NCBI GenBank assembly: GCA_049304015.1
Contig: JBAQNS010000009.1
Location: forward strand, 3,228-67,227
Length of the DNA: 64,000 nucleotides
Direction of reading: 5' to 3'
DNA from: Minisyncoccia bacterium
GTDB lineage: Bacteria; Patescibacteriota; Minisyncoccia; Phycocordibacterales; Zambryskibacteraceae
Under the pieces are notes generated by a model, which saw only the letters and a list, made by a program, of their open reading frames with translations, was not told where the DNA came from and did not search any database. Positions within the stretch are counted from its first letter, which is position 1. Every line of letters begins with the position of its first letter. Positions 28,005 through 49,611 of this stretch are shown piece after piece. A program made the translations under genes and the position numbers.

Positions 28005-30629
28005 ATGGAGAAAAATAAAAACAAAAATAAAGAGGATTTAATCATAGTGAAGGGTGCCCGAACACACAATCTAAAGAACCTAAGTGTGGAGATGCCTCGC
28101 AACAAAATGATTGTTTTCACAGGACTTTCTGGTTCAGGCAAGTCTTCTTTGGCTTTTGATACTATTTTCGCAGAAGGACAAAGGCGCTATGTAGAATCAC
28201 TATCTTCTTATGCTCGCCAGTTTTTAAAACAAATGCAGAAGCCTGATGTAGATGAAATTAGCGGTCTGTCTCCAGCCATATCCATTGATCAAAAATCCCG
28301 TTCAAATAACCCTCGTTCAACTGTGGCCACTATCACCGAGATATATGACTATCTACGTATTTTGTATGCTCGTATTGGCCGGCCACACTGTTTAGTGTGT
28401 GGTTCAGAAATCAAGAAACTTTCAAATGAAGAAATAAAAACATTTGTCTTAGAAAAAATTGCCACTTATTCAACTGAAAATAAATCTAAAAAGATTGCCT
28501 TACCTGTTTATGTAGAAATTTATTCTCCAATAGTTCGAGGTAGAAAAGGAGAATACTACCAACTTCTATATGACCTCTTAGGTAAGGGCTACACTGAAGT
28601 ATTGGTTGATGGAGAAAGAAAAAAACTTCGAGAGAGAATAGTGCTGACTAAAACCAAAGTACACAATATATCAGTACTGGTTGATTCAATTAGCCTGAAT
28701 GAATTTAAAACAGATGAGAAAACTGCGAGCGAAAGGTTGAGTGAAGCAATAGAGAAAGCTATTCATGAATCAGATGGACTTTTAGTAGTTAGATTTAGAG
28801 ATTTGGCAGATGAACAAAAACCAAAGAAAGAACAAAAAGAGGTAGAAGAATTTCTCATGTCTGCGAAGTGGGCTTGTCCAAAAGACGGATTCTCTTTCCC
28901 AGAAATTGAGCCTCGTTTGTTCTCTTTTAACTCTCCATATGGTGCATGCCCAGAATGCAATGGTCTAGGGACAAAATATCTGTTTGGTAATACTCCATGT
29001 GAAAAGTGTAAGGGTAAAAGACTTAGAGAAGAAGCCTTGCATGTTTTGATTGGTGGTAAGAATATTGTTGAATTAGTGGCTCTGTCTATTCATGATGCAA
29101 ATGAATTTTTTAAAAAATTAAAATTAACAATCAGAGAGAAAAATATTTCTAAGGTGGTGACCAAAGAAATCGAAGCCAGACTAGATTTTATGTTAAACGT
29201 GGGTATTGATTATTTAACCCTAGACAGACGAGCTCACACACTCTCGGGTGGAGAAGCTCAGCGTATTAGACTTGCGTCTCAGCTCGGTTCTGGTCTTGTG
29301 GGAGCCCTCTACGTGCTCGATGAGCCAACTATAGGTCTACACAGCAGAGATAATGATAGGCTAATAAAAACTCTTCATGAGCTACGCGATTTGGGGAACA
29401 CTATACTTATAGTTGAACACGATGAAGATACAATATATTCTTCTGATTATATTGTGGACATTGGTCCGGGCGCAGGCACACACGGTGGGCATGTGGTAGT
29501 GGCTGATTATTTGGACACTCTCCTCACAGCTAAAAAAAATGATTCAAAATCTTTAACTCTTTCTTATCTCAGAGAAGAATCAAGAATTGAAACTCCAGAA
29601 GTTCGAAGAACTAGTGAAAAGGGTGAAATAAAAATTCGCGCTGGGAAAATATTTAATATTAGACATTTGAATGTTGATATTCCCCTTGGTCGACTTATTG
29701 CAGTCACCGGAGTGTCTGGCTCAGGGAAATCTTCTTTTGTTTATGAAATTTTATACAAAAATTTACAAGCAAGATTAGAAAAAAGATATAGAAGTGCAGA
29801 GACATACAATGCTCAGTCTTTCACTGGTAGTGAGTATATTGGGAGAGCCATCATGATTGACCAGTCACCAATTGGTCGAACACCAAGAAGTAATCCAGCA
29901 ACTTATACTGGAGCATTTACATTTATTCGTGATCTCTTCGCAGAGTCTGCAGAAGCACGTGCTCGTGGATGGAAAGCTAATAGATTCTCATTCAATGTGA
30001 AAGGAGGTCGGTGTGAGACCTGTCAGGGCAATGGCATGATTGAAGTTGAGATGCATTTCCTTCCAACTGTCTATGTGCCTTGTGATGTCTGTAAGGGTAA
30101 AAGATTTATGAAAGAAACTCTGGAGGTTGAATACAAAAAGAAAAATATTTTTCAAATCCTAGAGATGACTGTTGAAGAAGCTTTAAAGTTTTATGAAGAT
30201 ATACCAGCAATCTATGACAGATTAAAATGTTTATGTGATGTTGGGCTTGGTTATCTTAAATTAGGTCAATCTGCTACCACTTTGTCTGGTGGGGAGGCCC
30301 AAAGAGTGAAGATTGCTTCCGAACTCTATCGTCCTCAACATCAAAAAACTATTTATATTTTGGACGAACCAACTATAGGACTCCATTATGAGGATGTGAA
30401 AAAACTTATAGAAATTCTCCAAATACTAGTAGACAAGGGCAATACAGTAATAGTCATTGAACACAATCTAGATTTTATTAAGAGTTGTGATTATGTATTA
30501 GATATTGGTCCAGAAGGTGGAAACAATGGTGGGGAATTAGTGGCTCAAGGGACACCTGAGGAGGTGGCTAATACAGATACTCATACAGGTGTTTATCTAA
30601 GAAAAATACTTAAAAAGCCTCGCCCGTAG
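28005..30629 (+). CDS. uvrA: Excinuclease ABC subunit A
   Basis: Two ABC ATPase modules ([12 protein letters not shown] and [11 protein letters not shown] Walker A, LSGGEAQR signatures) and zinc-finger CxxC pairs; 874 aa. Confidence 0.95.
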
Positions 30630-30643
30630 GCTATGGCCGAGGG
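30617..30643. repeat. GC-rich palindromic element copy A (GCCTCGCCC-gtaggctat-GGCCGAGGG) overlapping the uvrA stop codon
   Basis: Seen directly. The imperfect inverted repeat supplies the last codons (..PRP-stop) of uvrA. Confidence 0.55.
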
Positions 30644-31056
30644 AAAGAAAAAAGCAGAGTGCTAGCTCTGCTACCCATCGACGAGTGTCTGCCCGTTGCC
30701 TATTCGGCGAAGTGGGAGATCAAGCTCGAGAGGGTAATTCGGCATGCTCCCGTCTTCGTGCACAAGATCAGATATGTGCACAAGAATCATGTAGAGCTCG
30801 AACCAATCGGATCGTTTCATTAGTTGTTACTCGCTCGATGCTGGTCGGGTTTCAGTCACTCCATCGCATCTCATCCTTGTATCTACGAGCGCTGAGTGAT
30901 CAGGAGTTGAAGTTCGAAGCATCAACAATGTTTCTCTGTTGAGCTCGCGAACAGTCTTCTTGGCTTTAGGTTCACCTTGGCCATCTTTTGCACATGGCAT
31001 TCAAAGCTCCGGCTGAGGGTTTGTGCGAAGTCTTTTATGATAGTAAGATAGAAACA

Positions 31057-32307
31057 ATGAACAGTCAAGACTACAAGAAAATAGCCTTACCTGATGCACC
31101 GGGGGTGTATTTTTTCCTCGGACTTAAAAATGCCTCGCCCAAAAGCCTACGGCCGAGGGAAATCTTATATATAGGCAAGGCTACTAGTCTAAAGGATAGG
31201 GTGAAGAGTTATTTCTCAAACGATCTCATAGATACTCGTGGACCAAGATTAGTTCAGATGGTAGAAAAAGCTCAAAATATTAAATTTATTGAGACTCAAT
31301 CTGTGCTCGAAGCACTTATACTTGAAGCCAGTCAAATCAAAAAACACCAACCATATTTTAATTCTAAGGAAAAAGATGATAAGAGTTATAACTATGTGAC
31401 CATTACCGATGAAGATTTTCCTCAAATATTTATCACACGTGGACAAGGTACTTATGGCCCCTTCCCAAATGGTAGTGAACTAAGAGAAGCTCTAAAGATA
31501 ATCAGACGAATATTCCCATATAGAGACAATAAGTGCACCATGAAGAAACCCCTCGGCCATAGCTCGGCCACGGGCGAGGCTTGCTTTAATTCGCAAATAG
31601 GTCTTTGCCCTGGTGTTTGTGCTGGTCTCATGAGCAAGAGAGATTATAGAAAGCGAATTAAGTACATCAAACTTTTCTTTGAAGCCAAGAAAGATTTACT
31701 TATAAAAAATATTGAGAAAGAAATGAAACAGTTAGCTAAATTAGAAAAATTTGAAGAAGCAGAAAAGCTGAAGAGAACATTATATGCTCTCGAACATATT
31801 CAAGATATTGCACTAATAAAAAGAGATATAGAGAGAGGAACTTTAGAGAATGCTTATAGAATAGAAGCCTATGACATTGCGCATTTATCAGGCAAAGATA
31901 CAGTTGGAGTGATGACTGTGGTATTAAATGGCGAATTAGCCAAAGATCAATACAGAAAATTTAAAATAATTGGACAAAATAAGAAAGTAAACATTGATGA
32001 TACTGCTAATCTAAGGGAAATAATTAGACGCCGTCTTGGACACGCAGAGTGGGCACTGCCAAATCTTATAGTCATAGATGGGAGCACCGCCCAGATAAAT
32101 GCAGCAAGGAGTGTATTAAAGGAAAGAGGATTTCTAATAGAGATAGTTTCAGTAGTAAAGGATGAAAGGCACAAGGCTAAGGACATGATTGGTCTAAAAG
32201 GCACTGTAGAAAAGTGGGGTAGATCAATTCTTCTAGCTAACTCTGAAGCACACAGGTTCGCCATAAATTTTCATCGCAAATTGCGAAGCAAGGGATTTAG
32301 GATATAA
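31057..32307 (+). CDS. uvrC: Excinuclease ABC subunit C (short form lacking C-terminal HhH2)
   Basis: GIY-YIG motif (PGVYFF...ILYIGKATSLKDRVKSYF) and the C-terminal RNase-H-like endonuclease region (LIVIDGSTAQINAA). Start taken at MNSQDYKK; the upstream in-frame extension lies in GC-rich non-genic sequence. Confidence 0.85.
   Translation: MNSQDYKKIALPDAPGVYFFLGLKNASPKSLRPREILYIGKATSLKDRVKSYFSNDLIDTRGPRLVQMVEKAQNIKFIETQSVLEALILEASQIKKHQPYFNSKEKDDKSYNYVTITDEDFPQIFITRGQGTYGPFPNGSELREALKIIRRIFPYRDNKCTMKKPLGHSSATGEACFNSQIGLCPGVCAGLMSKRDYRKRIKYIKLFFEAKKDLLIKNIEKEMKQLAKLEKFEEAEKLKRTLYALEHIQDIALIKRDIERGTLENAYRIEAYDIAHLSGKDTVGVMTVVLNGELAKDQYRKFKIIGQNKKVNIDDTANLREIIRRRLGHAEWALPNLIVIDGSTAQINAARSVLKERGFLIEIVSVVKDERHKAKDMIGLKGTVEKWGRSILLANSEAHRFAINFHRKLRSKGFRI
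31132..31159. repeat. GC-rich palindromic element copy B inside the uvrC GIY-YIG coding region (in-frame)
   Basis: GCCTCGCCC-aaaagcctac-GGCCGAGGG encodes ASPKSLRPR, a ~9-aa insertion relative to the canonical GVY...(I/L)Y(V/I)GKA spacing. Confidence 0.55.
31550..31580. repeat. GC-rich palindromic element copy C (reverse orientation) inside uvrC coding region (in-frame)
   Basis: CCCTCGGCC-atagctcggccac-GGGCGAGGC is the reverse complement of the A/B arms; it encodes PLGHSSATGEA. Confidence 0.5.
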
Positions 32308-41274: not shown

Positions 41275-42258
41275 ATGATTAAGTGGTTCAAAAAACACTT
41301 TATACCTCATGAAGGCAATGACCATCAGCCTCATTTTCTTCGTACCAAAAATATTCGAGCAGTCGTTCTAATTCTTTTTGTTTTGGAGTTAGGAGTTTTT
41401 GCCATTCCTTATATACCTGCAATAGGTCCAGCATACAACAATTACCTCGCAGCAGTTTTGCCCGGAGTGTTGGACAGTCTTTCTAATCAAACAAGACAAG
41501 AAAATCATTTAGCCACCCTTACTGTTAGCCCACTCTTAAATAAAGTGGCTGAACTGAAAGCGAAGGACATGGCAGAAAAAGGATACTTTGCCCACACCAG
41601 TCCCGAAGGCAGAGCGCCTTGGTATTGGTTCGATAAAGCTGGTTATAAATATTTGTTCGCTGGAGAGAACTTAGCAGTAGACTTCACTGATTCAAAAGAT
41701 GTTACTTTGGCCTGGATGAATTCTCCTACACATAGAGCCAATATAGTGAAAGGCGTCTATACAGAAATGGGTACTGGAGTAGTGAGTGGTAACTTTGAAG
41801 GTCACCCAACTATTTTTGTTGTCCAAGTCTATGCGAGACCACTAACTACGATTGCTACTGTTTCTGAACCAAGTGCAGTTTCAAATATTAAGCCAACAAC
41901 AACTCAAACTACTAAGACTGTTGAATCCAAGGTCCTCGGTGCAGAAGTGGCCTTAGATGCAAACGTCACTTCACCCACACAACCTAAATCAAATTTGCTC
42001 ATGCAGTATGTTACTTCTCCTGGACGTGTAGCCAATATGATTTTTGTTATTTTGGGCATAATGATTTTACTCGCCTTAGTACTGAAATTATTTATAAGAA
42101 CAGATAAACGACATCCAAAACTCATTACCAATGGACTTGTTGTTTTGGTACTAATCTTTGGAATTTATAGTGTGAATAGTTACATAACCAAGAATAAAAT
42201 TTCACATAATATTACTTTCTACAGCTTTAACAATGAGAACCTTACTGACACTTACTAG
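41275..42258 (+). CDS. CAP/SCP/PR-1 (YkwD-like) domain protein, membrane-anchored at both ends
   Basis: CAP motifs (HYTQVVWRATxxVGCA-like: GHPTIFVVQVY; HRANIVKGVYTEMGTGVV) and N- and C-terminal TM helices. Start taken at MIKWFKK, downstream of a TATAAT box. Confidence 0.7.
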   Translation: MIKWFKKHFIPHEGNDHQPHFLRTKNIRAVVLILFVLELGVFAIPYIPAIGPAYNNYLAAVLPGVLDSLSNQTRQENHLATLTVSPLLNKVAELKAKDMAEKGYFAHTSPEGRAPWYWFDKAGYKYLFAGENLAVDFTDSKDVTLAWMNSPTHRANIVKGVYTEMGTGVVSGNFEGHPTIFVVQVYARPLTTIATVSEPSAVSNIKPTTTQTTKTVESKVLGAEVALDANVTSPTQPKSNLLMQYVTSPGRVANMIFVILGIMILLALVLKLFIRTDKRHPKLITNGLVVLVLIFGIYSVNSYITKNKISHNITFYSFNNENLTDTY

Positions 42259-42998
42259 AGCACCTCTATTTCAGAAATTTTATTTGATTTAAATTCATAT
42301 AGACTGGCTGGTCGGGAACGATTACCAATTCTCTTGTGATGTAGTCTCTCTAGTATCTTTAATTTCAATATTTTCTTCCTAAAATTACGCTTATCCAAAT
42401 CAGCCTTGAGGATACTCTCGTATGCTTGTTCGAGTTCAGTGAGAGTAAATTCTTTGGGCATCAGTTTGCACATCAATGTTGTATAAGTGATTCTTGATTG
42501 GAGTCTCCTTAGAGCTACTTTGAGAACTTCATCGTGGTCATAGGCAAGATTTGATAATTGATCAACATGTTTCCATGACAATTCTCTAGTATTAATTTTT
42601 TCTGTTTCAGTTAATGATTCCCATGGCACTAATCCAATATAGGCGACTGCCACAACGCGTCCACGAGGATCTCTATTAATGCGGCTAAATGTATATAATT
42701 GCTCAATATGAATTTTTTTAGTTGAAATCATGCCCGCTCTATCTTTCACTAGACGTACTACCGCTTGCTCAGCTGTTTCAGTAGGGAGCATAAGGCCACC
42801 AGGAAGTCCTGGTCTATCTACAAAGTGGGGGATATGGTTGACTTTCATGATGCGGACAAGAAGTTCCTTATTGTGAATAGTGAATAAGGCTATATCTGCG
42901 GCCAAGACAGCGAAACGTAGGTGTTTAGGAGAACTATTTTTAGGCATAAATAATTTATAGCAACATACAGATATATTGTCAAATATACACTTATCCAC
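42255..42998 (-). CDS. NrtR-like regulator (degenerate Nudix domain plus C-terminal winged-helix)
   Basis: Nudix fold with an incomplete Nudix box (GLPGGLMLPTETAEQAVVRLVKDRAG lacks the REx2EE glutamates) and a C-terminal DNA-binding-like region. The likely start is the Met at 42947. Confidence 0.6.
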   Translation of the reverse strand: MDKCIFDNISVCCYKLFMPKNSSPKHLRFAVLAADIALFTIHNKELLVRIMKVNHIPHFVDRPGLPGGLMLPTETAEQAVVRLVKDRAGMISTKKIHIEQLYTFSRINRDPRGRVVAVAYIGLVPWESLTETEKINTRELSWKHVDQLSNLAYDHDEVLKVALRRLQSRITYTTLMCKLMPKEFTLTELEQAYESILKADLDKRNFRKKILKLKILERLHHKRIGNRSRPASLYEFKSNKISEIEVL

Positions 42999-43132
42999 AG
43001 TTTAGTAATTGTATAGTTGACACTAAGTAAATTAAGGAATAGTGTGAGGTTAGACATATAAACCAAGCACTATTCTGAACCATTGACTGTGTCTTATAAG
43101 TGTTATAGAGTAGTGCGGGTTTAGACCGTTCT

Positions 43133-44023
43133 TTGTCAGAGAGATTTAGTTTAGCTGACAATCTATTTAGTTCAATTTTGACCTCAAAAGGAGGGATATT
43201 GATTATCAAAGATCCTGGCTCTGGGAAGAGCTATGAAGTTGGTCAAAGAGTGGCTGAGACCGAAAGGTATCGGCTTTATCTCTGTAGACCAGAGGGTGAG
43301 TCTTCGGACCACCTGCTTCAAATCGCGGTGGAGGTGGAGCATAATGCTGCCCTCGATCGCGCGTCGTACGTTCTGGAAAGGCTCGAAGAAGAAGCTCGCA
43401 AGATCGAGGAAGAGTTCGCCAAGGTGAAAACCGAGCCGAATCACTTCCTGAATTACCAACTCTGTTTCCCCAAGGTCGTGGGTTCATTCATACCAGACGA
43501 TCAGGGTGGCAGACGAGTAAACATCCTTTGCTTCAGAGAGGTGGAGGATGTAGGCAAGGTTGTACCGCTACAGAACCTCGTAGAGACGGACAAGCTTCGT
43601 GCAGATTTGAGGTCGAGTGCTTGGATCATGGGGAAACTCCTCAAGATCCTCATCTTCCTCAATGATGCGAATGTGGTTGCTCATGATCTGTCGCTCGGCA
43701 ATGTTCTCATCGAACCCGAGCAACACTACGTCATCATTTTCAGTTGGGCTGACGCCGAATTGAAAGCTGGTGCAGTAGGTAGAGCAATCACGAGAAGTGA
43801 AATTCAAGCAGCTGCTCGCGTTGTCATCGAAGTGCTGGGAGGTACTCTCGAAGGAGGTATCCCCGGTGATGGTGGTCAAGAGCATGTTCAGTATCAGAAG
43901 TTTCTCTTCGACCTCGCACATGGCAGTGAAAGTAACGCGGCACTGGCTCACATGTCGTTCTACAAGTTGGTTGATAGTTTGTGGCCACGCGGTTTCTATC
44001 CATTCACCACCCACTCTCGGTAA
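43133..44023 (+). CDS. Protein-kinase-like/APH-family phosphotransferase (divergent) - first gene of high-GC island
   Basis: Gly-rich loop IKDPGSGKSYEV and catalytic loop VAHDLSLGNVLIE (compare HGDLHPGNIL of APH/CotS and HRDLKPENIL of kinases), followed by IIFSWADAE. High-GC codon usage. The start is ambiguous: TTG at 43133, or TTG at 43199 after an AAGGAGGG SD. Confidence 0.55.
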   Translation: MSERFSLADNLFSSILTSKGGILIIKDPGSGKSYEVGQRVAETERYRLYLCRPEGESSDHLLQIAVEVEHNAALDRASYVLERLEEEARKIEEEFAKVKTEPNHFLNYQLCFPKVVGSFIPDDQGGRRVNILCFREVEDVGKVVPLQNLVETDKLRADLRSSAWIMGKLLKILIFLNDANVVAHDLSLGNVLIEPEQHYVIIFSWADAELKAGAVGRAITRSEIQAAARVVIEVLGGTLEGGIPGDGGQEHVQYQKFLFDLAHGSESNAALAHMSFYKLVDSLWPRGFYPFTTHSR

Positions 44024-44040
44024 AACGGGAAGGAAGGACG

Positions 44041-45165
44041 ATGGGAAGCAGAACATTCTCGAGGGATGCCTACGTCAAGGCGAGCAGCTTGTACACCAAG
44101 CCGGGTGAGTCAACGACTGCCCGAGGTGAACAAGAAGTTCGTCGGACAGGCAAGCTGAATCCACTTGTGGATCCGGCTGAATTCGGAGTAGTGCGTGAAT
44201 CACGCATTCGCCTCGAAGATCGAGAAGGAGGTGGCTTCACTGTCACCGTGGGCACACCAGTGCCTGTCGAGTATCGTCTGGACACCACTGGTTCCATGGG
44301 TGACAACGTCGAACGGGCGTACAAGGCACTGCCGCATACGTGCGAGCATGTGGCCGCTGTACTGCCAGGCCGAGACCCCTTCTACTGCGCTTCGATTTTC
44401 GGTGATGTCGTCGACCAGTTCGTACTGTGTCGAGGACAATTCGAAGCCGAAGCAGAGAAGATGGTCAACCAACTCACGCTCATGGTTCCAGAAGGTAGCG
44501 GTGGAGACACCCCAGAAGATCCTCAGTACGGACTCTTCGGTGCCGCCTACCTTACCAACGCTTATCTGCAACGTATCGGTTTGCGCTCCTATGACTTCAC
44601 TGTCACGGACGCACCGATGCATGATCTGATTAGCGCCAAGCAGCTCAAGCGTATCTTCGGTGATGAAGTGTTCGAGAAGCTGAAGGAAAATGGCCAGTCG
44701 ATTTCAGCGAAGGATTTACCCTCCAATACAGAGATCGTCAAGGATCTCTTGAAGAGGGCTCATGCCTTTGCTTTCATGGTTGGCAATTCTGCCACCCACG
44801 CCTGGACCAGCCTCTACGGTTCCGAACACGTGATTCTTCTGCCCCGGATCGAGTACACTCCTCACATCATGGCCGTTATCATTGGCCTGACGGAAGGAAC
44901 TCTCGATTTGCGTTCATCCAAGGATTTCTTGACTGAACGCAACCTCAGCAAGGTCGAAGCACAGGGCATCATCGACGCAGTGGCGCACATCCCGCTCGGT
45001 GCACAGACCATGTGCCCCAATTTCGACAAGTTGCCCAAGGCAGGTGACATCTTCAAGGAGAAGACCGACCTCTGGCCGATCGATCCGGAAGACATTCCTA
45101 CTTCTGCTGCTCCGAAGAAGGGCAAGAAGGGCGGCAAGGAATCTGGCAAGGGTGGGTGGCTCTAG
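44041..45165 (+). CDS. von Willebrand factor A (vWA) domain protein with MIDAS motif
   Basis: RLDTTGSMGDN (DxTGS MIDAS), a later VTDAPMHD element, and a Lys/Gly-rich C-tail. GGAAGGAAGGA SD before the ATG at 44041. Confidence 0.7.
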   Translation: MGSRTFSRDAYVKASSLYTKPGESTTARGEQEVRRTGKLNPLVDPAEFGVVRESRIRLEDREGGGFTVTVGTPVPVEYRLDTTGSMGDNVERAYKALPHTCEHVAAVLPGRDPFYCASIFGDVVDQFVLCRGQFEAEAEKMVNQLTLMVPEGSGGDTPEDPQYGLFGAAYLTNAYLQRIGLRSYDFTVTDAPMHDLISAKQLKRIFGDEVFEKLKENGQSISAKDLPSNTEIVKDLLKRAHAFAFMVGNSATHAWTSLYGSEHVILLPRIEYTPHIMAVIIGLTEGTLDLRSSKDFLTERNLSKVEAQGIIDAVAHIPLGAQTMCPNFDKLPKAGDIFKEKTDLWPIDPEDIPTSAAPKKGKKGGKESGKGGWL

Positions 45166-45192
45166 GCTTTCACTTCGACCGAGGACGTGACG

Positions 45193-46566
45193 ATGAAAAA
45201 GATTTACGTCGTCACGGACCTTGGTCCTGGTGACGGTGGTAAGGGTGGTGTGGTCCACAAGATCAGCCACATGCAAGGTGCTCACACTATCCTCAAGGTA
45301 GGAGGAGCACAGGGAAGTCATGGAGTATCTACTTCGAGTGGAAAACGATTTGCCTTTAGTCAATTTGGTTGTGGCACCTTCGAAGGTGTTCGCACTCACT
45401 TGACCAAGAGGTTCGTTGCTTCACCTGAAGGGATACTCAACGAAGCGCAAGCTTTGGATCAAGGTTGTGGTTTGAGTGATGTCTACAGTCTGCTCACAGT
45501 GGATGAGGATGTCATTTGTGCCACTCCGTATCATGGCATCTCTTCACGCTTGAAAGAGCTTGCAAGAGGAGATAATCTTCGCGGTACGATTGGGACAGGG
45601 GTTGGTGAGGCGTTTCGCTACAACCAACGTTTTCCTGAACTGACTATCCGTGCGAAGGATCTCTTCAGCCAAAACCTAAGAGAGCTGCTGGCTGCAGTTA
45701 GAGACCAACTACACGTTGACCTCGAATCTGTAATTAGTGGTACTTTCTTAGAAAGTGATAGGGTCTTAGTTGAACAAGAAGTAGATCGTCTGCTTGATCC
45801 GAAATACCTTGAATTTATTTTGCATCGTTTTCGAACGGCTGCAAAGCATGTCCGAATAGTAGGCCAAGAGTATTTTCATGATCTTACCACCAGCTATGGT
45901 GTGATGGTTGTTGAAAGTTCTCATGGTGTACTGACGGATCATTTTCAAGGGTTTCATCCTCATACTTCAGCCATTCGAACACTTCCTCGCTTCACGCGTG
46001 GGATGCTCGAAGAAGTTGGATATGATGGCGAACTGGTGAACATTGGGGTAACCCGTGCATATCAAATTCGTCATGGTGCAGGGCCTATGCCAACAGCCGA
46101 TGAGGCTATGGCAGAAAACCTTTTACCAGGAAGTTCGAAGGATGAGAATCGCTATCAGGGAAAGGTGCGTGTTGGTCCACTTGATTTGGTACTGCTTCGT
46201 TATGCGATAGCAGCCTGTGGTGGACCAGATGCATTCGACGGCTTGGCTGTCACCTGGTTCGATCAAATCCAGGAGAATGGATCTTGGTTTTTGTGTCGGA
46301 GCTACAAGGGAGCAACAGATCAAAACTTTTTCACCCCACAAGGTGAGTTGAAGGTTCGATTTGGAGATGATGAAGAACAGTTGAAGTATCAGGAGGAACT
46401 TGGTCACCATCTAGAAAGGTGCGTACCAGTGCTCACAGAGCACACAGTTTCTCCTGGTCCCAACTTTAACTTCCTCACTTGCTCTGCAGTATTGAATGAA
46501 GCACTTCGAGTACCTGTACGGATGGTCTCGTTCGGATCTACCGAACAAGAAAAATTGTGTAGGTGA
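45193..46566 (+). CDS. Adenylosuccinate synthetase (PurA)-family protein, highly divergent
   Basis: PurA hallmarks present: GDGGKGG (cf. GDEGKGK), GGAQGSHG (cf. GGHNAGHT), GTIGTGVGEA (cf. GTTGRGIGP), TRAYQIRHGAGPMPT (cf. TRVGAGPFPTE), VRVGPLDLVLLRYA (cf. GWLDTVAVRRA). The Asp-binding GATTGRRRR loop is replaced by NRYQGKVRVG and Gln224 (EGAQG) is replaced by His (ESSHG). Confidence 0.75.
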   Translation: MKKIYVVTDLGPGDGGKGGVVHKISHMQGAHTILKVGGAQGSHGVSTSSGKRFAFSQFGCGTFEGVRTHLTKRFVASPEGILNEAQALDQGCGLSDVYSLLTVDEDVICATPYHGISSRLKELARGDNLRGTIGTGVGEAFRYNQRFPELTIRAKDLFSQNLRELLAAVRDQLHVDLESVISGTFLESDRVLVEQEVDRLLDPKYLEFILHRFRTAAKHVRIVGQEYFHDLTTSYGVMVVESSHGVLTDHFQGFHPHTSAIRTLPRFTRGMLEEVGYDGELVNIGVTRAYQIRHGAGPMPTADEAMAENLLPGSSKDENRYQGKVRVGPLDLVLLRYAIAACGGPDAFDGLAVTWFDQIQENGSWFLCRSYKGATDQNFFTPQGELKVRFGDDEEQLKYQEELGHHLERCVPVLTEHTVSPGPNFNFLTCSAVLNEALRVPVRMVSFGSTEQEKLCR

Positions 46567-46588
46567 ATTCAAACCACAAGGAGTAACC

Positions 46589-47737
46589 GTGGGAACTTCT
46601 GCAGAACCGACCGTTGGTGACGCTGTCACCACGAGGCTCACCGAATTGGGTGTCGAACCGACTGTGATCGAGAAGATCAGGACGGACCTCGGCGCCACTT
46701 CGGTGGACGATCTGGCTGGCCTCAACGAGAGTGATCTCGTCGGCGCCGGCATGAAGGCTCTTCCGGCGAGGAATCTCGTCGCAAAGCTCAGGAAGGCCGC
46801 AGCGGAAGCTGCTGCTCCTGCCGCAAGTGCAGTCAGCACGATGTCGTTCGAAGGCGTACTGCCGGCAGTGCCGGATGATACGTCATGGCTTGCGGCACTT
46901 CGTGCAGGTGGAGTTCTGAAGGTCGATCAGTCGACCGTCATCTCCGCCGTTCGTGCAGGACTCGCTCACCGGGTCGGACTCTTCGAAGTTCCGGATCTGC
47001 TCGTCGCAGAGATGGAGCGGTTCTCGGATGCGAACGAAGAGCAGGTCGACCCGGAGTTCTTCAAGCTCCGCAAGATGCTGACTCGCAAGTCGTACGGCGA
47101 TATCTTCGAGGCCATCGAAGGACTCGAAGGCTCGTACGTCACCGAGGGTCGCAAGAAGGAACTCTTCAGCCGTCTCGATGGCAAGTTGTGGCCGGCAATC
47201 ATCAGCTTCAACGGCGCCCTTAAGGCGTGGCAGGAAGCATGGATGCAGGGTGCAGCCAATCCTGCCATCATGATGAGCGCGATCTTTGCGGCTTCTGGTA
47301 CTGGTGGTGGAGCGATGCCTCCGGGCATGATGCAGCCACCCGATACCGGCGTCCTGCGTGACAACGCGGCAGCCGTGGCGGACGCAGTCAATCGCGTTTT
47401 CGCTGGGACTGGCGTGCAGATCGCCGCGGCCCTCGCATACGAGGCGTCGCGTATCAAGGAGACTCTCACGAACCCGCGGTTGCCCGCCCTTATCGGTGCG
47501 GCCAATCGCGACCAGATGCTTCGTCAGCTGGGTGTGGCCGTTTCGGCGACCTATCCTCGCCTCGAGATGAACCTGACCAAGTTCGTGCTGGCGGTTCTGC
47601 AGGCACAGGACCAGCCGGCCGGCAACGAAGAGCTTCAGTACTTCGGTGCCATGTACATGCTCGGGTCCCAGATCCCCTGGGAGCAGCTGGGTTCGACTGG
47701 CAAGCCGTCGGGTATCGGCGGCGGTCGTCGCCTCTAG
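46589..47737 (+). CDS. Hypothetical protein with tandem N-terminal HeH/SAP-like motifs and Gly/Met/Pro-rich central segment
   Basis: GTG start after a GGAG SD; LTELGVEPTVIEKIR and LAGLNESDLVGAGMKALPARNLVAKLRKAA helix-extension-helix patterns; GTGGGAMPPGMMQPP segment; high-GC codon usage. Confidence 0.55.
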   Translation: MGTSAEPTVGDAVTTRLTELGVEPTVIEKIRTDLGATSVDDLAGLNESDLVGAGMKALPARNLVAKLRKAAAEAAAPAASAVSTMSFEGVLPAVPDDTSWLAALRAGGVLKVDQSTVISAVRAGLAHRVGLFEVPDLLVAEMERFSDANEEQVDPEFFKLRKMLTRKSYGDIFEAIEGLEGSYVTEGRKKELFSRLDGKLWPAIISFNGALKAWQEAWMQGAANPAIMMSAIFAASGTGGGAMPPGMMQPPDTGVLRDNAAAVADAVNRVFAGTGVQIAAALAYEASRIKETLTNPRLPALIGAANRDQMLRQLGVAVSATYPRLEMNLTKFVLAVLQAQDQPAGNEELQYFGAMYMLGSQIPWEQLGSTGKPSGIGGGRRL

Positions 47738-47766
47738 AACCAAATCTCTCAATAAGTACATTAGTT

Positions 47767-47797
47767 GGGCGGATACGATTAGTGTCCGCCCTTTTTC
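47767..47797 (+). terminator. Rho-independent terminator (GGGCGGA-N11-TCCGCCC followed by T5) closing the high-GC island
   Basis: Seen directly; composition returns to low GC immediately after. Confidence 0.6.
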
Positions 47798-47807
47798 ATT
47801 GCCTAAT

Positions 47808-49583
47808 TTATGAAAGTTTAGGGAGAAAAACTCTTTGGGTAAAAAGTTTAAGTGCAGTTTGTCTAAATCCTGAATCCCAAAATACACTCTTTCCATCAAC
47901 AAGTTCGGAATGTTCAGTATGCAATCCGCCGGAGGGAGGTAAAAATTTCTTGTACCCCTTGTGCATCAGTCTGTATTGCAAGGTGTCTCTTTCAAGTTCC
48001 TCTAAGAAAACTCTTCGTGCAGGCAATCCATAAATTTCACCATTATTGTAAAAATATTGAGTCAAAAGTTTTTCGTGCAAATCTTTTATCACTTGTTTGT
48101 CTCCATCCCAAACTGCTCCAAACAAAACATGGGTCCAGTAACTTTCTCCTACGAATGGTTCTGGTTTATCAAAATCATGAACCTTTAATCCAATTGGTGC
48201 TTCCTCTAACCAAAACTCTATAGTGTCTCCATGAGCATATTTTTGAGGAAGCTTTGACTTGAGTAACTCCTTAACTCTCTCCTTATCCTCCAATTTAATT
48301 TCAGGTTTAACAAAAATAGCCAAATCTAAGTCAGAATTTGATGTCCCATAGCCCTTAAGTTTTGAGCCAAAATACAATGCCACAGGGTATAAATACTGTG
48401 CCAGCTCTGCATCATTTTCGATTATTGAGGTAATATTATTCATAATTTCTTGATCATTATTAGCCTCAGTCAAATTTTTTGAAAACGGTCCTGATAGGGA
48501 AGTGAGTTTTAGACCAAGACTCAAAAATACAGCTTCATCCAAAATATTTAATTTGTTTAATCTATAGAAAAGAGTTGAAAGTTCATCTACAGTCTCTGGA
48601 GTTTTTTTATCCCAAAGTGACATTATGATATCCTCATATTTTTTGTATATTTTTATAGCTTCATCTTGATTTACTGCTGTTGTTGACTCTATGGCATCTC
48701 GGATACCAATAACCAAGGCGAGTTTGTCATCACTAGTTACGACCTTTTCATCCTCTAGTACTAGTTTTGCTATATCACGGGCTTTTGATTCTGTATCCCT
48801 TCTCTTTCTTTCACTACTTAACCAAGCAGTGCGTCCTTCTGTGACTATTTCTGGTTCTTCAATTTCAATTCTAGCTTCAGAAACATTAATTTGCCCCAAG
48901 TATTTATCCTCCACAAGTCCCAGGTCGACCGCTACAGTGAGTGCTTCATATGCATTTTGTCTAAAGACGTCATCATCACTTTCACTGATTAAGTTTAAAA
49001 CTTTATCTACACTAATTAATTCCTTTTCTATTAATTTAGGGATTAAGTGCGCAGCCTTTACCACTCTGGGCAAATCACTTTCTCTTAATTCTACTTCTAA
49101 TACATCTCCATCAACAAAATTTGCTCGGACATCATGTATATCTAAGCATGCTTCCCATGCATTCATGTATGTTGCTCTAAATTTTTCTGCAGCTTGTGAC
49201 AGTTCACTATCAGGAGCACCTAAATTTACACTCGGTAAATATTCGAATGGCACATAAAGCAAAGCTCTTTTATAATCTGGGTTTTCAAGTAAATGACTCA
49301 ATGATTCAAACAAATCTATAACCTGCTTCTCACTCAGCTGGCCTTCATTTAGTGCCAGTTCTAACTCAATATTAGGTTTTCGCATATTAGAAATCACAGC
49401 TTCAACACTTTCAATTATTTTTTTGCGTTCTTCTATTTGTTTAATGAATACCTCATTGTCCAAAATCTTTTCTGGCCAAACATTCGACTGATTAGTTGAA
49501 TCAAGTAGTGATTCAACTGCAGGTACGGTAAATTGTCTTTTCTCTGCTGATTCTTCGTTTAGATTTGTGCCCTCTCTATACAT
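47808..49583 (-). CDS. Pol-beta-superfamily nucleotidyltransferase domain protein with large N-terminal helical region
   Basis: C-terminal GS...D.D motif (FGSKLKGYGTSNSDLDLAIFV); 591 aa. The true start is probably downstream of 49583 because of the divergent overlap with ychF. Confidence 0.5.
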   Translation of the reverse strand: MYREGTNLNEESAEKRQFTVPAVESLLDSTNQSNVWPEKILDNEVFIKQIEERKKIIESVEAVISNMRKPNIELELALNEGQLSEKQVIDLFESLSHLLENPDYKRALLYVPFEYLPSVNLGAPDSELSQAAEKFRATYMNAWEACLDIHDVRANFVDGDVLEVELRESDLPRVVKAAHLIPKLIEKELISVDKVLNLISESDDDVFRQNAYEALTVAVDLGLVEDKYLGQINVSEARIEIEEPEIVTEGRTAWLSSERKRRDTESKARDIAKLVLEDEKVVTSDDKLALVIGIRDAIESTTAVNQDEAIKIYKKYEDIIMSLWDKKTPETVDELSTLFYRLNKLNILDEAVFLSLGLKLTSLSGPFSKNLTEANNDQEIMNNITSIIENDAELAQYLYPVALYFGSKLKGYGTSNSDLDLAIFVKPEIKLEDKERVKELLKSKLPQKYAHGDTIEFWLEEAPIGLKVHDFDKPEPFVGESYWTHVLFGAVWDGDKQVIKDLHEKLLTQYFYNNGEIYGLPARRVFLEELERDTLQYRLMHKGYKKFLPPSGGLHTEHSELVDGKSVFWDSGFRQTALKLFTQRVFLPKLS

Positions 49584-49611
49584 AAGGCCATTATATGGCT
49601 ATTATTTGGGT

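Follow-up and report, generated by a model that had tools for sequence, protein, structure and literature searches.

Likely independent insertions of a short GC-rich hairpin element in the uvrA and uvrC genes of a Minisyncoccia bacterium

In this work, we analyzed a 64,000-nucleotide stretch of a Minisyncoccia bacterium (assembly GCA_049304015.1, contig JBAQNS010000009.1, positions 3,228 to 67,227 of the forward strand; hereafter the window), in which a short GC-rich imperfect palindrome occurs three times at the genes uvrA and uvrC. We consider it likely that each of the three sequences arose by its own insertion of a non-autonomous short DNA element, an imperfect hairpin dispersed in the genomes of Patescibacteria, alternatively called the candidate phyla radiation (CPR). 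A first-pass annotation had described the gapped palindrome GCCTCGCCC-N9-13-GGCCGAGGG at 30617(+), 31132(+) and 31550(-), and all three matches were recovered with the sequences and positions claimed, against 0.00 expected from 100 dinucleotide-preserving shuffles. The copies and their host genes are as follows.

28005..30629, plus strand: uvrA, 874 aa, host of copy A.
30617..30643, plus strand: copy A, GCCTCGCCCGTAGGCTATGGCCGAGGG, made up of GCCTCGCCC, GTAGGCTAT and GGCCGAGGG.
31057..32307, plus strand: uvrC, 416 aa, host of copies B and C.
31132..31159, plus strand: copy B, GCCTCGCCCAAAAGCCTACGGCCGAGGG, made up of GCCTCGCCC, AAAAGCCTAC and GGCCGAGGG.
31550..31580, minus strand: copy C, GCCTCGCCCGTGGCCGAGCTATGGCCGAGGG, made up of GCCTCGCCC, GTGGCCGAGCTAT and GGCCGAGGG.

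Neither 9-mer has a further mismatch-free occurrence in the window, and an nhmmer search of the 64 kb with a profile built from 37 distinct family variants returned the three copies (E values of 1e-7, 6e-7 and 8e-6) and no fourth, the next match having E > 6. No other family of GC-rich palindromic inserts was found in the window. The family itself was collected by scanning species-representative genomes for GCCTCGCCC-N3-12-CTAYGGCCGAG, which gave at least 120 matches, and all family counts in this text are among the matches listed. Copy A, which has the 26-nt form (GCCTCGCCCGTAGGCTATGGCCGAGG) and a G at its flank, does not differ from the most frequent 26-mer of the family (9 copies). Copy B is a 27-nt insertion plus a flanking G, two substitutions away from a 27-mer, with an inner stem that is degraded and weakened (AAAAG instead of ATAGG), and it is probably the oldest of the three insertions. 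Copy C lies in reverse orientation; it consists of the 30-nt form and a flanking G, and is one substitution away from a common 30-mer. As the three copies belong to three different sub-variants of 26, 27 and 30 nt, they represent separate insertions, and local duplication of one copy was ruled out. Their clustering at uvrA-uvrC is real, as three copies inside 964 bp and none in the other 63 kb give p ~ 7e-4 under uniform placement by our own arithmetic.

The empty sites found in relatives carry the argument for insertion. The matches of a UvrC homology search were all CPR/Parcubacteria-type proteins, and the five closest orthologs among the matches listed (84-89% identical over aligned columns, 396-403 aa vs 416 aa in the window) were without both the B and the C segments, exactly. 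At site B, the relatives read GPKK directly followed by EILYIGKA where the window reads GLKN-ASPKSLRPR-EILYIGKA, and at site C they read CTMKKP directly followed by CFNSQ where the window reads CTMKKP-LGHSSATGEA-CFNSQ. DNA alignments of the window with two close relatives (L001 and L003) and the more distant L005 revealed an exact 27-nt gap at site B and an exact 30-nt gap at site C in both L001 and L003, and a gap of 24-26 nt at site A in the relatives. Site A is empty in L001 and L003, where UvrA ends in ...KKSKKKAER-stop or ...KKK-stop, and site B of L005 holds a 30-nt copy of the element. Judged by these alignments, each copy in the window is an exact insertion relative to its close relatives, so the comparison of uvrA and uvrC orthologs that the first-pass annotation had proposed came out in favor of insertion, with clean gaps at B and C. 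As described there, both uvrC copies are in frame, B encodes ASPKSLRPR, and copy A provides the last residues and the stop codon of uvrA. Both uvrC copies are read through, C as LGHSSATGEA, while copy A, read in the third frame as Pro-Arg-Pro-TAG, replaces a short variable UvrA tail, leaving a protein that ends in ...KKPRP-stop.

If UvrA and UvrC had instead contained the segments from the start, or kept them under selection for function, and the relatives had lost them, unrelated orthologs should share the residues, as the first-pass annotation had pointed out, and two UvrC proteins (P0013 and P0031) do carry similar peptides at site B, namely ASPVTGLRPM and VSPVAGLWPR. These two proteins form a single separate clade, with identities of 90.5% between the two and 67% to the window UvrC, and their nearest relatives (79% identical) have no insert at site B. 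What they carry is the same DNA element, which together with the insert-less relatives indicates a second, independent insertion at a hot spot and not ancestral sequence. At site B, gain on two separate occasions is by far the more parsimonious account, as the alternative needs many precise losses. The exact lack of both segments in the five closest orthologs argues in the same direction, as does the fact that the same nucleotides recur in both orientations and in more than one frame, inside unrelated genes as well as between genes, which indicates that they are not conserved by protein-level selection. An ancestral origin is thus so improbable that we give it almost no weight.

Outside the window, low-GC matches came nearly all from Patescibacteria of many classes (Nomura-, Paceibacterota, Uhr-, Adler-, Kaiser-, Giovannoni-, Zambryski-, Staskawicz- and Saccharibacteria), and the few matches in GC-rich genomes miss the trailing GG and therefore look like chance. 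Family-type copies with the trailing GG were also present in bins not labeled Patescibacteria, L011, L034 (Candidatus Edwardsbacteria metagenome-assembled genome, MAG), L067 and L085 (MAGs labeled Gammaproteobacteria, GC 0.42-0.45), which could be due to mis-binning or to a wider host range. The element is an imperfect palindrome of 26-31 nt with a stem of ~11 pairs and one C:C mismatch, and its consensus is GCCTCGCCC(G/A)TAGGGCTA(T/C)GGCCGAGG followed by G, or G-CCTCG-C-CC(G/A)TAG-GGG-CTA(T/C)GG-C-CGAGG-G. It occurs mainly as forms of 27 nt (57 copies), 30 nt (21) and 26 nt (19), one stem position is mostly G..T (41) or A..C (19) and not Watson-Crick, and the sequence is nearly invariant across a phylum-level radiation. 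Literature searches by sequence, peptide and keywords found no description of this element. Phage carriage was ruled out, with no exact match to the element in 2.9 million viral contigs.

Many housekeeping genes with no relation to one another carry the element in frame, in either orientation, and it is also found in intergenic DNA. About half of the copies (51/104) lie in open reading frames (ORFs) of at least 150 aa, 23 of them sense and 28 antisense. Among the hosts are nucleic-acid enzymes (RNase R, RNase III, PolA, two Pol III delta'/HolB, RecG, DnaG and another UvrA), cell wall enzymes (five Mur ligases and MurB), secretion proteins (SecA and two SecF) and others such as GatA/B, ArgRS, SHMT, CPSase and TIM. 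Of the six reading frames of the 27-mer, four are open (ASPxGLxPR, GLAxRxxAEG, LGHSPTGEA and PSAxALRAR); the remaining two contain TAG, and one of these is used by copy A. The 27- and 30-nt forms account for 44 of the 51 copies in ORFs and for 36 of the 53 elsewhere (Fisher p = 0.036). We propose that copies would land next to (T)C with little further preference for a site and that, in gene-dense genomes, purifying selection would leave as survivors those that are in frame, stop-free and at tolerant positions, a filter that would give rise to the lengths divisible by three and to the loop positions. The first-pass view that the element tolerates in-frame insertion into coding DNA is borne out both by the empty sites in relatives and by the same element in dozens of unrelated CPR genes.

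The positions within UvrA and UvrC are in line with such tolerance. Insert B corresponds to a 9-residue gap in the solved UvrC N-terminal domains 1YD6 and 1YCZ and lies between the GVY and YIGKA strands, in the beta1-beta2 surface turn (beta-hairpin) of the GIY-YIG fold, which agrees with the claim that copy B adds ~9 aa between GVY and LYIGKA. In the AlphaFold2 model of the window UvrC, strands at residues 16-21 and 36-42 flank an unstructured loop (residues 22-35), of which residues 26-31 have a pLDDT < 50. Insert C falls in the linker between Cys1 and Cys2 of a four-cysteine motif, which ranges from 5 to ~15 residues in length among UvrC orthologs and has low confidence in the same model. 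Copy A, at 26 nt, occupies dispensable last codons of uvrA and carries its own TAG. The window copies are therefore tolerated because of their frame and position, and their effect on UvrA and UvrC is probably neutral.

Hairpins in and next to genes could also be cis-acting signals in RNA or transcription that are selected here, such as terminators, attenuators or RNase III sites for uvrA and uvrC. A T-rich run follows each window copy on one strand, a simple terminator scan caught parts of A and C, and the hairpins fold at -10 to -20 kcal/mol. However, the fold z-scores are unremarkable (-0.6 to -1.9), base composition over 103 copies shows no bias in the flank where the T-run would lie, and orientation relative to the host gene is divided between 23 sense and 28 antisense copies. 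In addition, the variable stem position has no preference for G.U in the mRNA sense, so that selection for an mRNA hairpin is unsupported, and a native intrinsic terminator already adjoins copy A. A selected RNA signal is therefore very unlikely. The terminator is listed here:

30653..30672, minus strand: native intrinsic terminator, serving the small minus-strand ORF(s) between uvrA and uvrC.

This terminator is not part of the element and is conserved in L001. Searches of the window with Rfam and ARAGORN found three tRNAs elsewhere and no known RNA in or near the region.

The comparison of occupied and empty sites also defines the ends of the insertion. The inserted unit, GCCTCG...CGAGG, sits directly 5' of a G, with one base ambiguous, and no target duplication was found beyond this ambiguous G. 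Over the family, the base after the unit is G in 99 of 103 copies, followed by A in 51, and the other flank is unbiased; in the CCCTCGGCC... orientation, the element is directly 3' of C (96%), usually TC. The commonest preceding 4-mers are TTTC (12 copies) and CGTC (8/103, mostly tRNA-embedded). A one-sided flank with missing duplication fits single-strand cut-and-insert chemistry, as in IS200/IS605 and in repetitive extragenic palindromes (REPs) with their REP-associated tyrosine transposases (RAYTs), and not a MITE (miniature inverted-repeat transposable element) moved by a DDE transposase. From the first-pass description of a REP/MITE-like mobile palindrome, we thus keep the likeness to REPs and to the palindromic elements of Rickettsia (RPEs) and drop the MITE part, as there are no terminal inverted repeats (TIRs) and no duplication except perhaps one G. 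Insertion into the loops of pre-existing hairpins was also considered and rejected, since flank complementarity was 5.31 pairs vs 5.39 +/- 0.27 pairs in re-paired controls.

Exact recurrence at the same site was seen three times, at UvrC site B, in RNase R (L058 and L119) and in SecF (L032 and L053), implying hot spots, strong filtering of permissive sites, or both. The RNase R hairpin is present in three genomes (L058:3604-5790, L119:7489-7998 and L008:3363-5123), and one RNase R gene has two copies in opposite orientation. The SecF hairpin occupies the same site in two genomes (L032:6141-7061 and L053:626-1690).

Several copies of the hairpin lie in a recurrent cassette in which a duplicated 5' tRNA fragment, interrupted by the hairpin, is followed by a stand-alone ~79-aa GIY-YIG ORF and then by an intact tRNA. 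The fragment is mostly from tRNA-Gln, and the hairpin is located mostly just after tRNA position 13, in the D-loop. The ORF has the motif MxYVYVLKSxKDxxLYIGCT...HNxGKVxSTK and encodes a single-domain protein of 79-83 aa with GIY-YIG motifs, whose closest solved relatives are the UPF0213 proteins 1ZG2 and 1YWL (E = 2e-11). The cassette was present at these loci:

Cassette loci: L016, L043, L078, L112, L123, L125, L067, L109, L062 and L059; L127-L166.
Cassette examples: L127:1940-2330, L138:1820-2300 and L162:1474-1800.

L067, one of the bins labeled Gammaproteobacteria, holds the tRNA-Gln/GIY-YIG cassette as well as family-type copies. Against ascertainment bias, we used an independent sample of 80 metagenome loci picked by protein alone, with a 5-sequence alignment. 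The hairpin lies within 200 nt upstream of the gene in 32 of the 73 evaluable loci, which make up nearly all of the closest, tRNA-Gln-linked relatives. Some loci have 2-4 tandem copies, downstream hairpin copies were present too in 9/76, and a tRNA gene starts within 150 nt downstream in 53/76, being Gln in 38. More distant relatives of the protein, which lie next to tRNA-Ser, -Leu, -Phe and others, have different GC-rich hairpins at the same upstream position, which suggests co-varying nuclease/hairpin pairs. Examples of these other hairpins are CCTGCCCGCAA...TTGCAGGCGGGG and CCCCGCAAGGCGGGG, and they were seen at L093:3793-3900 (minus strand), L019, L172, L174, L182, L183, L189 and L197.

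The number of units made of a tRNA fragment and a hairpin varies. In L067, L146 and L162, there are pseudo-tRNA-Gln copies of full length whose D-, anticodon and T-loops carry hairpins, and L059 and L138 have tandem hairpin arrays. Two contigs that are 99.7% identical (L155:2225-2420 and L157:850-1130) differ by one extra 81-nt unit before the intact tRNA-Gln, composed of tRNA-Gln 1-13, the hairpin, tRNA-Gln 14-26 and a spacer, which represents strain-level copy-number variation. Between the near-identical contigs L155:490-600 and L158:595-600, there is a ~110-nt indel with a different GC-rich palindrome (GCAGGCAGGCCCGCCTGTCGGCGAGGCAGGCC).

Hairpins in the loops of tRNA-like sequences bring up removal at the RNA level, whereby the copies would be mini-introns or resemble the intervening sequences of rRNA and would never reach protein; CPR genomes are indeed rich in introns and rRNA insertions (PMC11270868, PMC13011429). 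Excision would not require that in-gene copies be 27 or 30 nt long and stop-free, nor does it suit the out-of-frame 26-nt form at a gene end, where it supplies the stop codon. Moreover, every hairpin-bearing tRNA copy has an intact tRNA beside it, so these copies look like pseudo-tRNAs. Splicing of a tRNA intron was rejected in the same way, because removing the element from tRNA-like flanks never made a new tRNA and ARAGORN found only the adjoining intact one. We regard RNA-level removal as exceedingly unlikely.

The linkage with the nuclease gene leads to the question of what moves the element. Single-domain GIY-YIG proteins of cd10448 (Ssn) are nucleases specific for single-stranded DNA (ssDNA) that bind a cognate hairpin repeat (NTS/SRM), found on the flanks of their gene and scattered over the genome, and make their cut just upstream of this repeat, and an architecture like that of insertion sequences has been remarked on for them (Chenal et al. 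2025, PMC11893778). By analogy, a small nuclease of the Ssn/UPF0213 type, a stand-alone GIY-YIG protein, may catalyze the spread of our element in trans on ssDNA, since the gene is almost always preceded by the hairpin in a duplicated 5' tRNA-Gln fragment; we hold this possible, although we would not count on it. Taken one step further, the hairpin and the ~79-aa protein might form a new autonomous/non-autonomous mobile pair, a "GIY-YIG REPtron," an idea that we put forward tentatively. The nuclease would recognize the hairpin in ssDNA, cut next to (T)C and copy the hairpin to new sites, including tRNA-gene loops, where the cassette would rebuild an intact tRNA and could re-insert in tandem, and coding sequences across the CPR radiation.

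The element could also be truly mobile and yet owe its spread to something else, either a RAYT or IS200-type HUH tyrosine transposase, or no enzyme of its own but templated repair, gene conversion or recombination after natural transformation. The size, imperfect palindrome, one-sided flank and missing duplication fit REP/RAYT biology as well (PMC3733652), and same-site recurrence in orthologs could stem from recombination with imported alleles. Nevertheless, no RAYT was seen beside any copy, though no systematic search for RAYT was made, and the linkage to the GIY-YIG gene is very strong, was confirmed in the protein-picked sample and involves protein sub-families that carry different hairpins. 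Recent import is also at odds with the neighborhood: between 20.9 and 34.1 kb, the window runs collinear with L001, nucleotide identity is 76-85% and does not drop at uvrA-uvrC, and this uniform divergence rules out a recently imported uvr segment. Another mover is therefore unlikely.

Less likely still is that the copies are tags useful to the host, like NTS/SsnA of Neisseria, which would mark ssDNA for cleavage and modulate transformation or recombination around repair genes. Ssn cleaves ssDNA beside its hairpin and limits the integration of NTS-flanked DNA (PMC11893778), and intragenic REPs are reported to favor replication/repair genes including uvrA and uvrB (PMC3733652). In our data, three copies cluster at uvrA-uvrC, and ~7 of 38 annotated hosts are replication/repair genes (p ~ 0.03 vs an assumed 8% background). 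This enrichment is weak and depends on the assumed background, most hosts are unrelated housekeeping genes, and the closest relatives are without the copies, suggesting that no conserved function is attached to these sites.

Returning to the reading of dispersed insertions spread in trans by the nuclease, several observations weigh against it. Neither a transposition event nor enzyme activity has been observed, and no cassette-type GIY-YIG gene is present in the 64-kb window. Copy number per genome appears low, from a few to ~10 exact matches, with at least 9 loci in the richest genome, so that mobilization in trans need not be frequent. Insertion into single strands as in IS200/IS605 would predict a replication-strand bias, and the one we measured was not significant (57:40, p = 0.10). 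The SRM motif HGTCWY...RNCYNB overlaps 0/122 copies and has no match in the window, and the CGTC tag is limited to the few, mostly tRNA-embedded copies mentioned above. As for the survival filter, the class of copies inside a gene requires a spanning ORF, which itself favors lengths divisible by three. Random insertion with selection leaves three different variants within 1 kb unexplained.

The neighborhood of the insertions is otherwise conserved. The gene order uvrB-uvrA-uvrC-ddl is common to the window, L001, L003 and L005, and ddl lies directly after uvrC in the window and 120 listed homologs. The window uvrC is of the short CPR type; its domains are GIY-YIG, UVR, UvrC_M and RNase H-like, and it is without the helix-hairpin-helix domain at the C-terminus. 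UvrC proteins of the clade (again the window and 120 listed homologs) are 384-434 aa long and end after the RNase H-like domain without it. The GC-richer spacer between uvrA and uvrC contains a conserved 57-aa minus-strand ORF (30827-31000) and its terminator. Between the two, ~140 nt (30685-30824) are missing in L001; in this segment lies a minus-strand ORF of 49 aa (30671-30820) that matches nothing in Pfam. Farther away, a 7.4-kb segment of the window (42244-49610) is missing in L001, and its core (43-48 kb) is free of rRNA and has 47-56% GC vs ~38% elsewhere. Its products are an NrtR-like Nudix regulator, a divergent protein like adenylosuccinate synthetase and a nucleotidyltransferase of the Pol-beta type, together with several proteins without a Pfam match. 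This segment is probably a horizontally acquired island.

The presence of a nearly invariant 27-nt element in essential genes of many CPR classes means that a process like that of RPEs shapes proteins in the most reduced free-standing bacterial genomes. It is also a warning for annotation: a "lineage-specific loop" of 9-10 residues in a CPR protein can be selfish DNA, with consequences for alignments, for phylogenies and for the prediction of structures. The most promising lead is the hairpin together with the tiny GIY-YIG nuclease and the duplicated tRNA fragments, a concrete candidate enzyme-substrate pair that bears on how repeats of the Ssn and CGTC types spread. As tools that act on ssDNA with sequence specificity, Ssn enzymes also attract interest. 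The REPtron, if true, would be the first evidence that Ssn-type nucleases mobilize their repeats and would account for one 27-nt sequence kept across a phylum-level radiation. The location in uvrA and uvrC echoes, in a new phylum, the reported preference of intragenic REPs for replication/repair genes, as does the weak excess of such hosts in our sample, which is not decisive.

Among known systems are the RPEs of Rickettsia (Ogata et al. 2000), and palindromes inserted in frame are familiar from textbooks as a curiosity of that genus. Like RPEs and intragenic REPs, our element is a palindromic repeat found in frame in housekeeping genes, is tolerated in loops or termini and occurs in symbionts with reduced genomes. 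RPE-1 measures 100-150 bp, and our element, which we compared with RPE families by description, is far shorter; unlike RPEs and intragenic REPs, it is conserved nearly base for base over a phylum-level radiation and not within a genus. Short GC-rich palindromes in AT-rich, gene-dense genomes, occasionally in frame, are also known as the GC clusters of yeast mitochondria and as other organelle hairpins, although yeast belongs to another domain of life and the sequences are unrelated; to our knowledge, the yeast clusters have no nuclease partner of the GIY-YIG kind.

REPs are imperfect stem-loop palindromes of 20-40 nt, a description that our element fits, and those tagged with GTAG or CGTC were catalogued by Di Nocera et al. 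2013 (PMC3733652), with intragenic cases in uvrA, uvrB, PolA and RecBCD. The CGTC REPs (dRS3 and RPE-4/6) have no known transposase (PMC3733652), and our element is without the CGTC tag that would place it with RPE-4 and RPE-6. It differs from both REP superfamilies in having no terminal tag, CGTC preceding 8/103 copies and GTAG occurring only inside the stem. While REPs are mainly extragenic and number tens to thousands per genome, about half of our listed copies are intragenic, and we counted 3 per 64 kb in the window and at least 9 loci in the richest genome. With REP/REPIN-RAYT and IS200/IS605 it shares a short imperfect hairpin unit, a one-sided short target motif, the lack of target duplication and the pairing of a single-copy nuclease gene with many non-autonomous copies; here, however, the associated protein is GIY-YIG and not an HUH tyrosine transposase, copies are mostly single instead of inverted REPIN doublets, copy number is apparently low, and no strand bias was detected. 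In comparison with MITEs, the whole element is one hairpin without TIRs flanking a body and without a target duplication of fixed length.

The likeness to Ssn includes a single-domain GIY-YIG protein of ~80-95 aa encoded beside dispersed GC-rich hairpin repeats of 20-50 nt, protein sub-families with different hairpins and enrichment in symbionts. In contrast, duplicated tRNA fragments surround the CPR gene with its hairpin, and roughly one solo copy in two is intragenic vs 2% for NTS. CPR is outside the coverage of PMC11893778, and our protein is only a candidate member of cd10448, with its best solved relatives in UPF0213. The element thus fails the defining sequence tags of the REP and Ssn repeat families, and its behavior resembles that of RPEs and intragenic REPs, and probably also that of repeats associated with Ssn.

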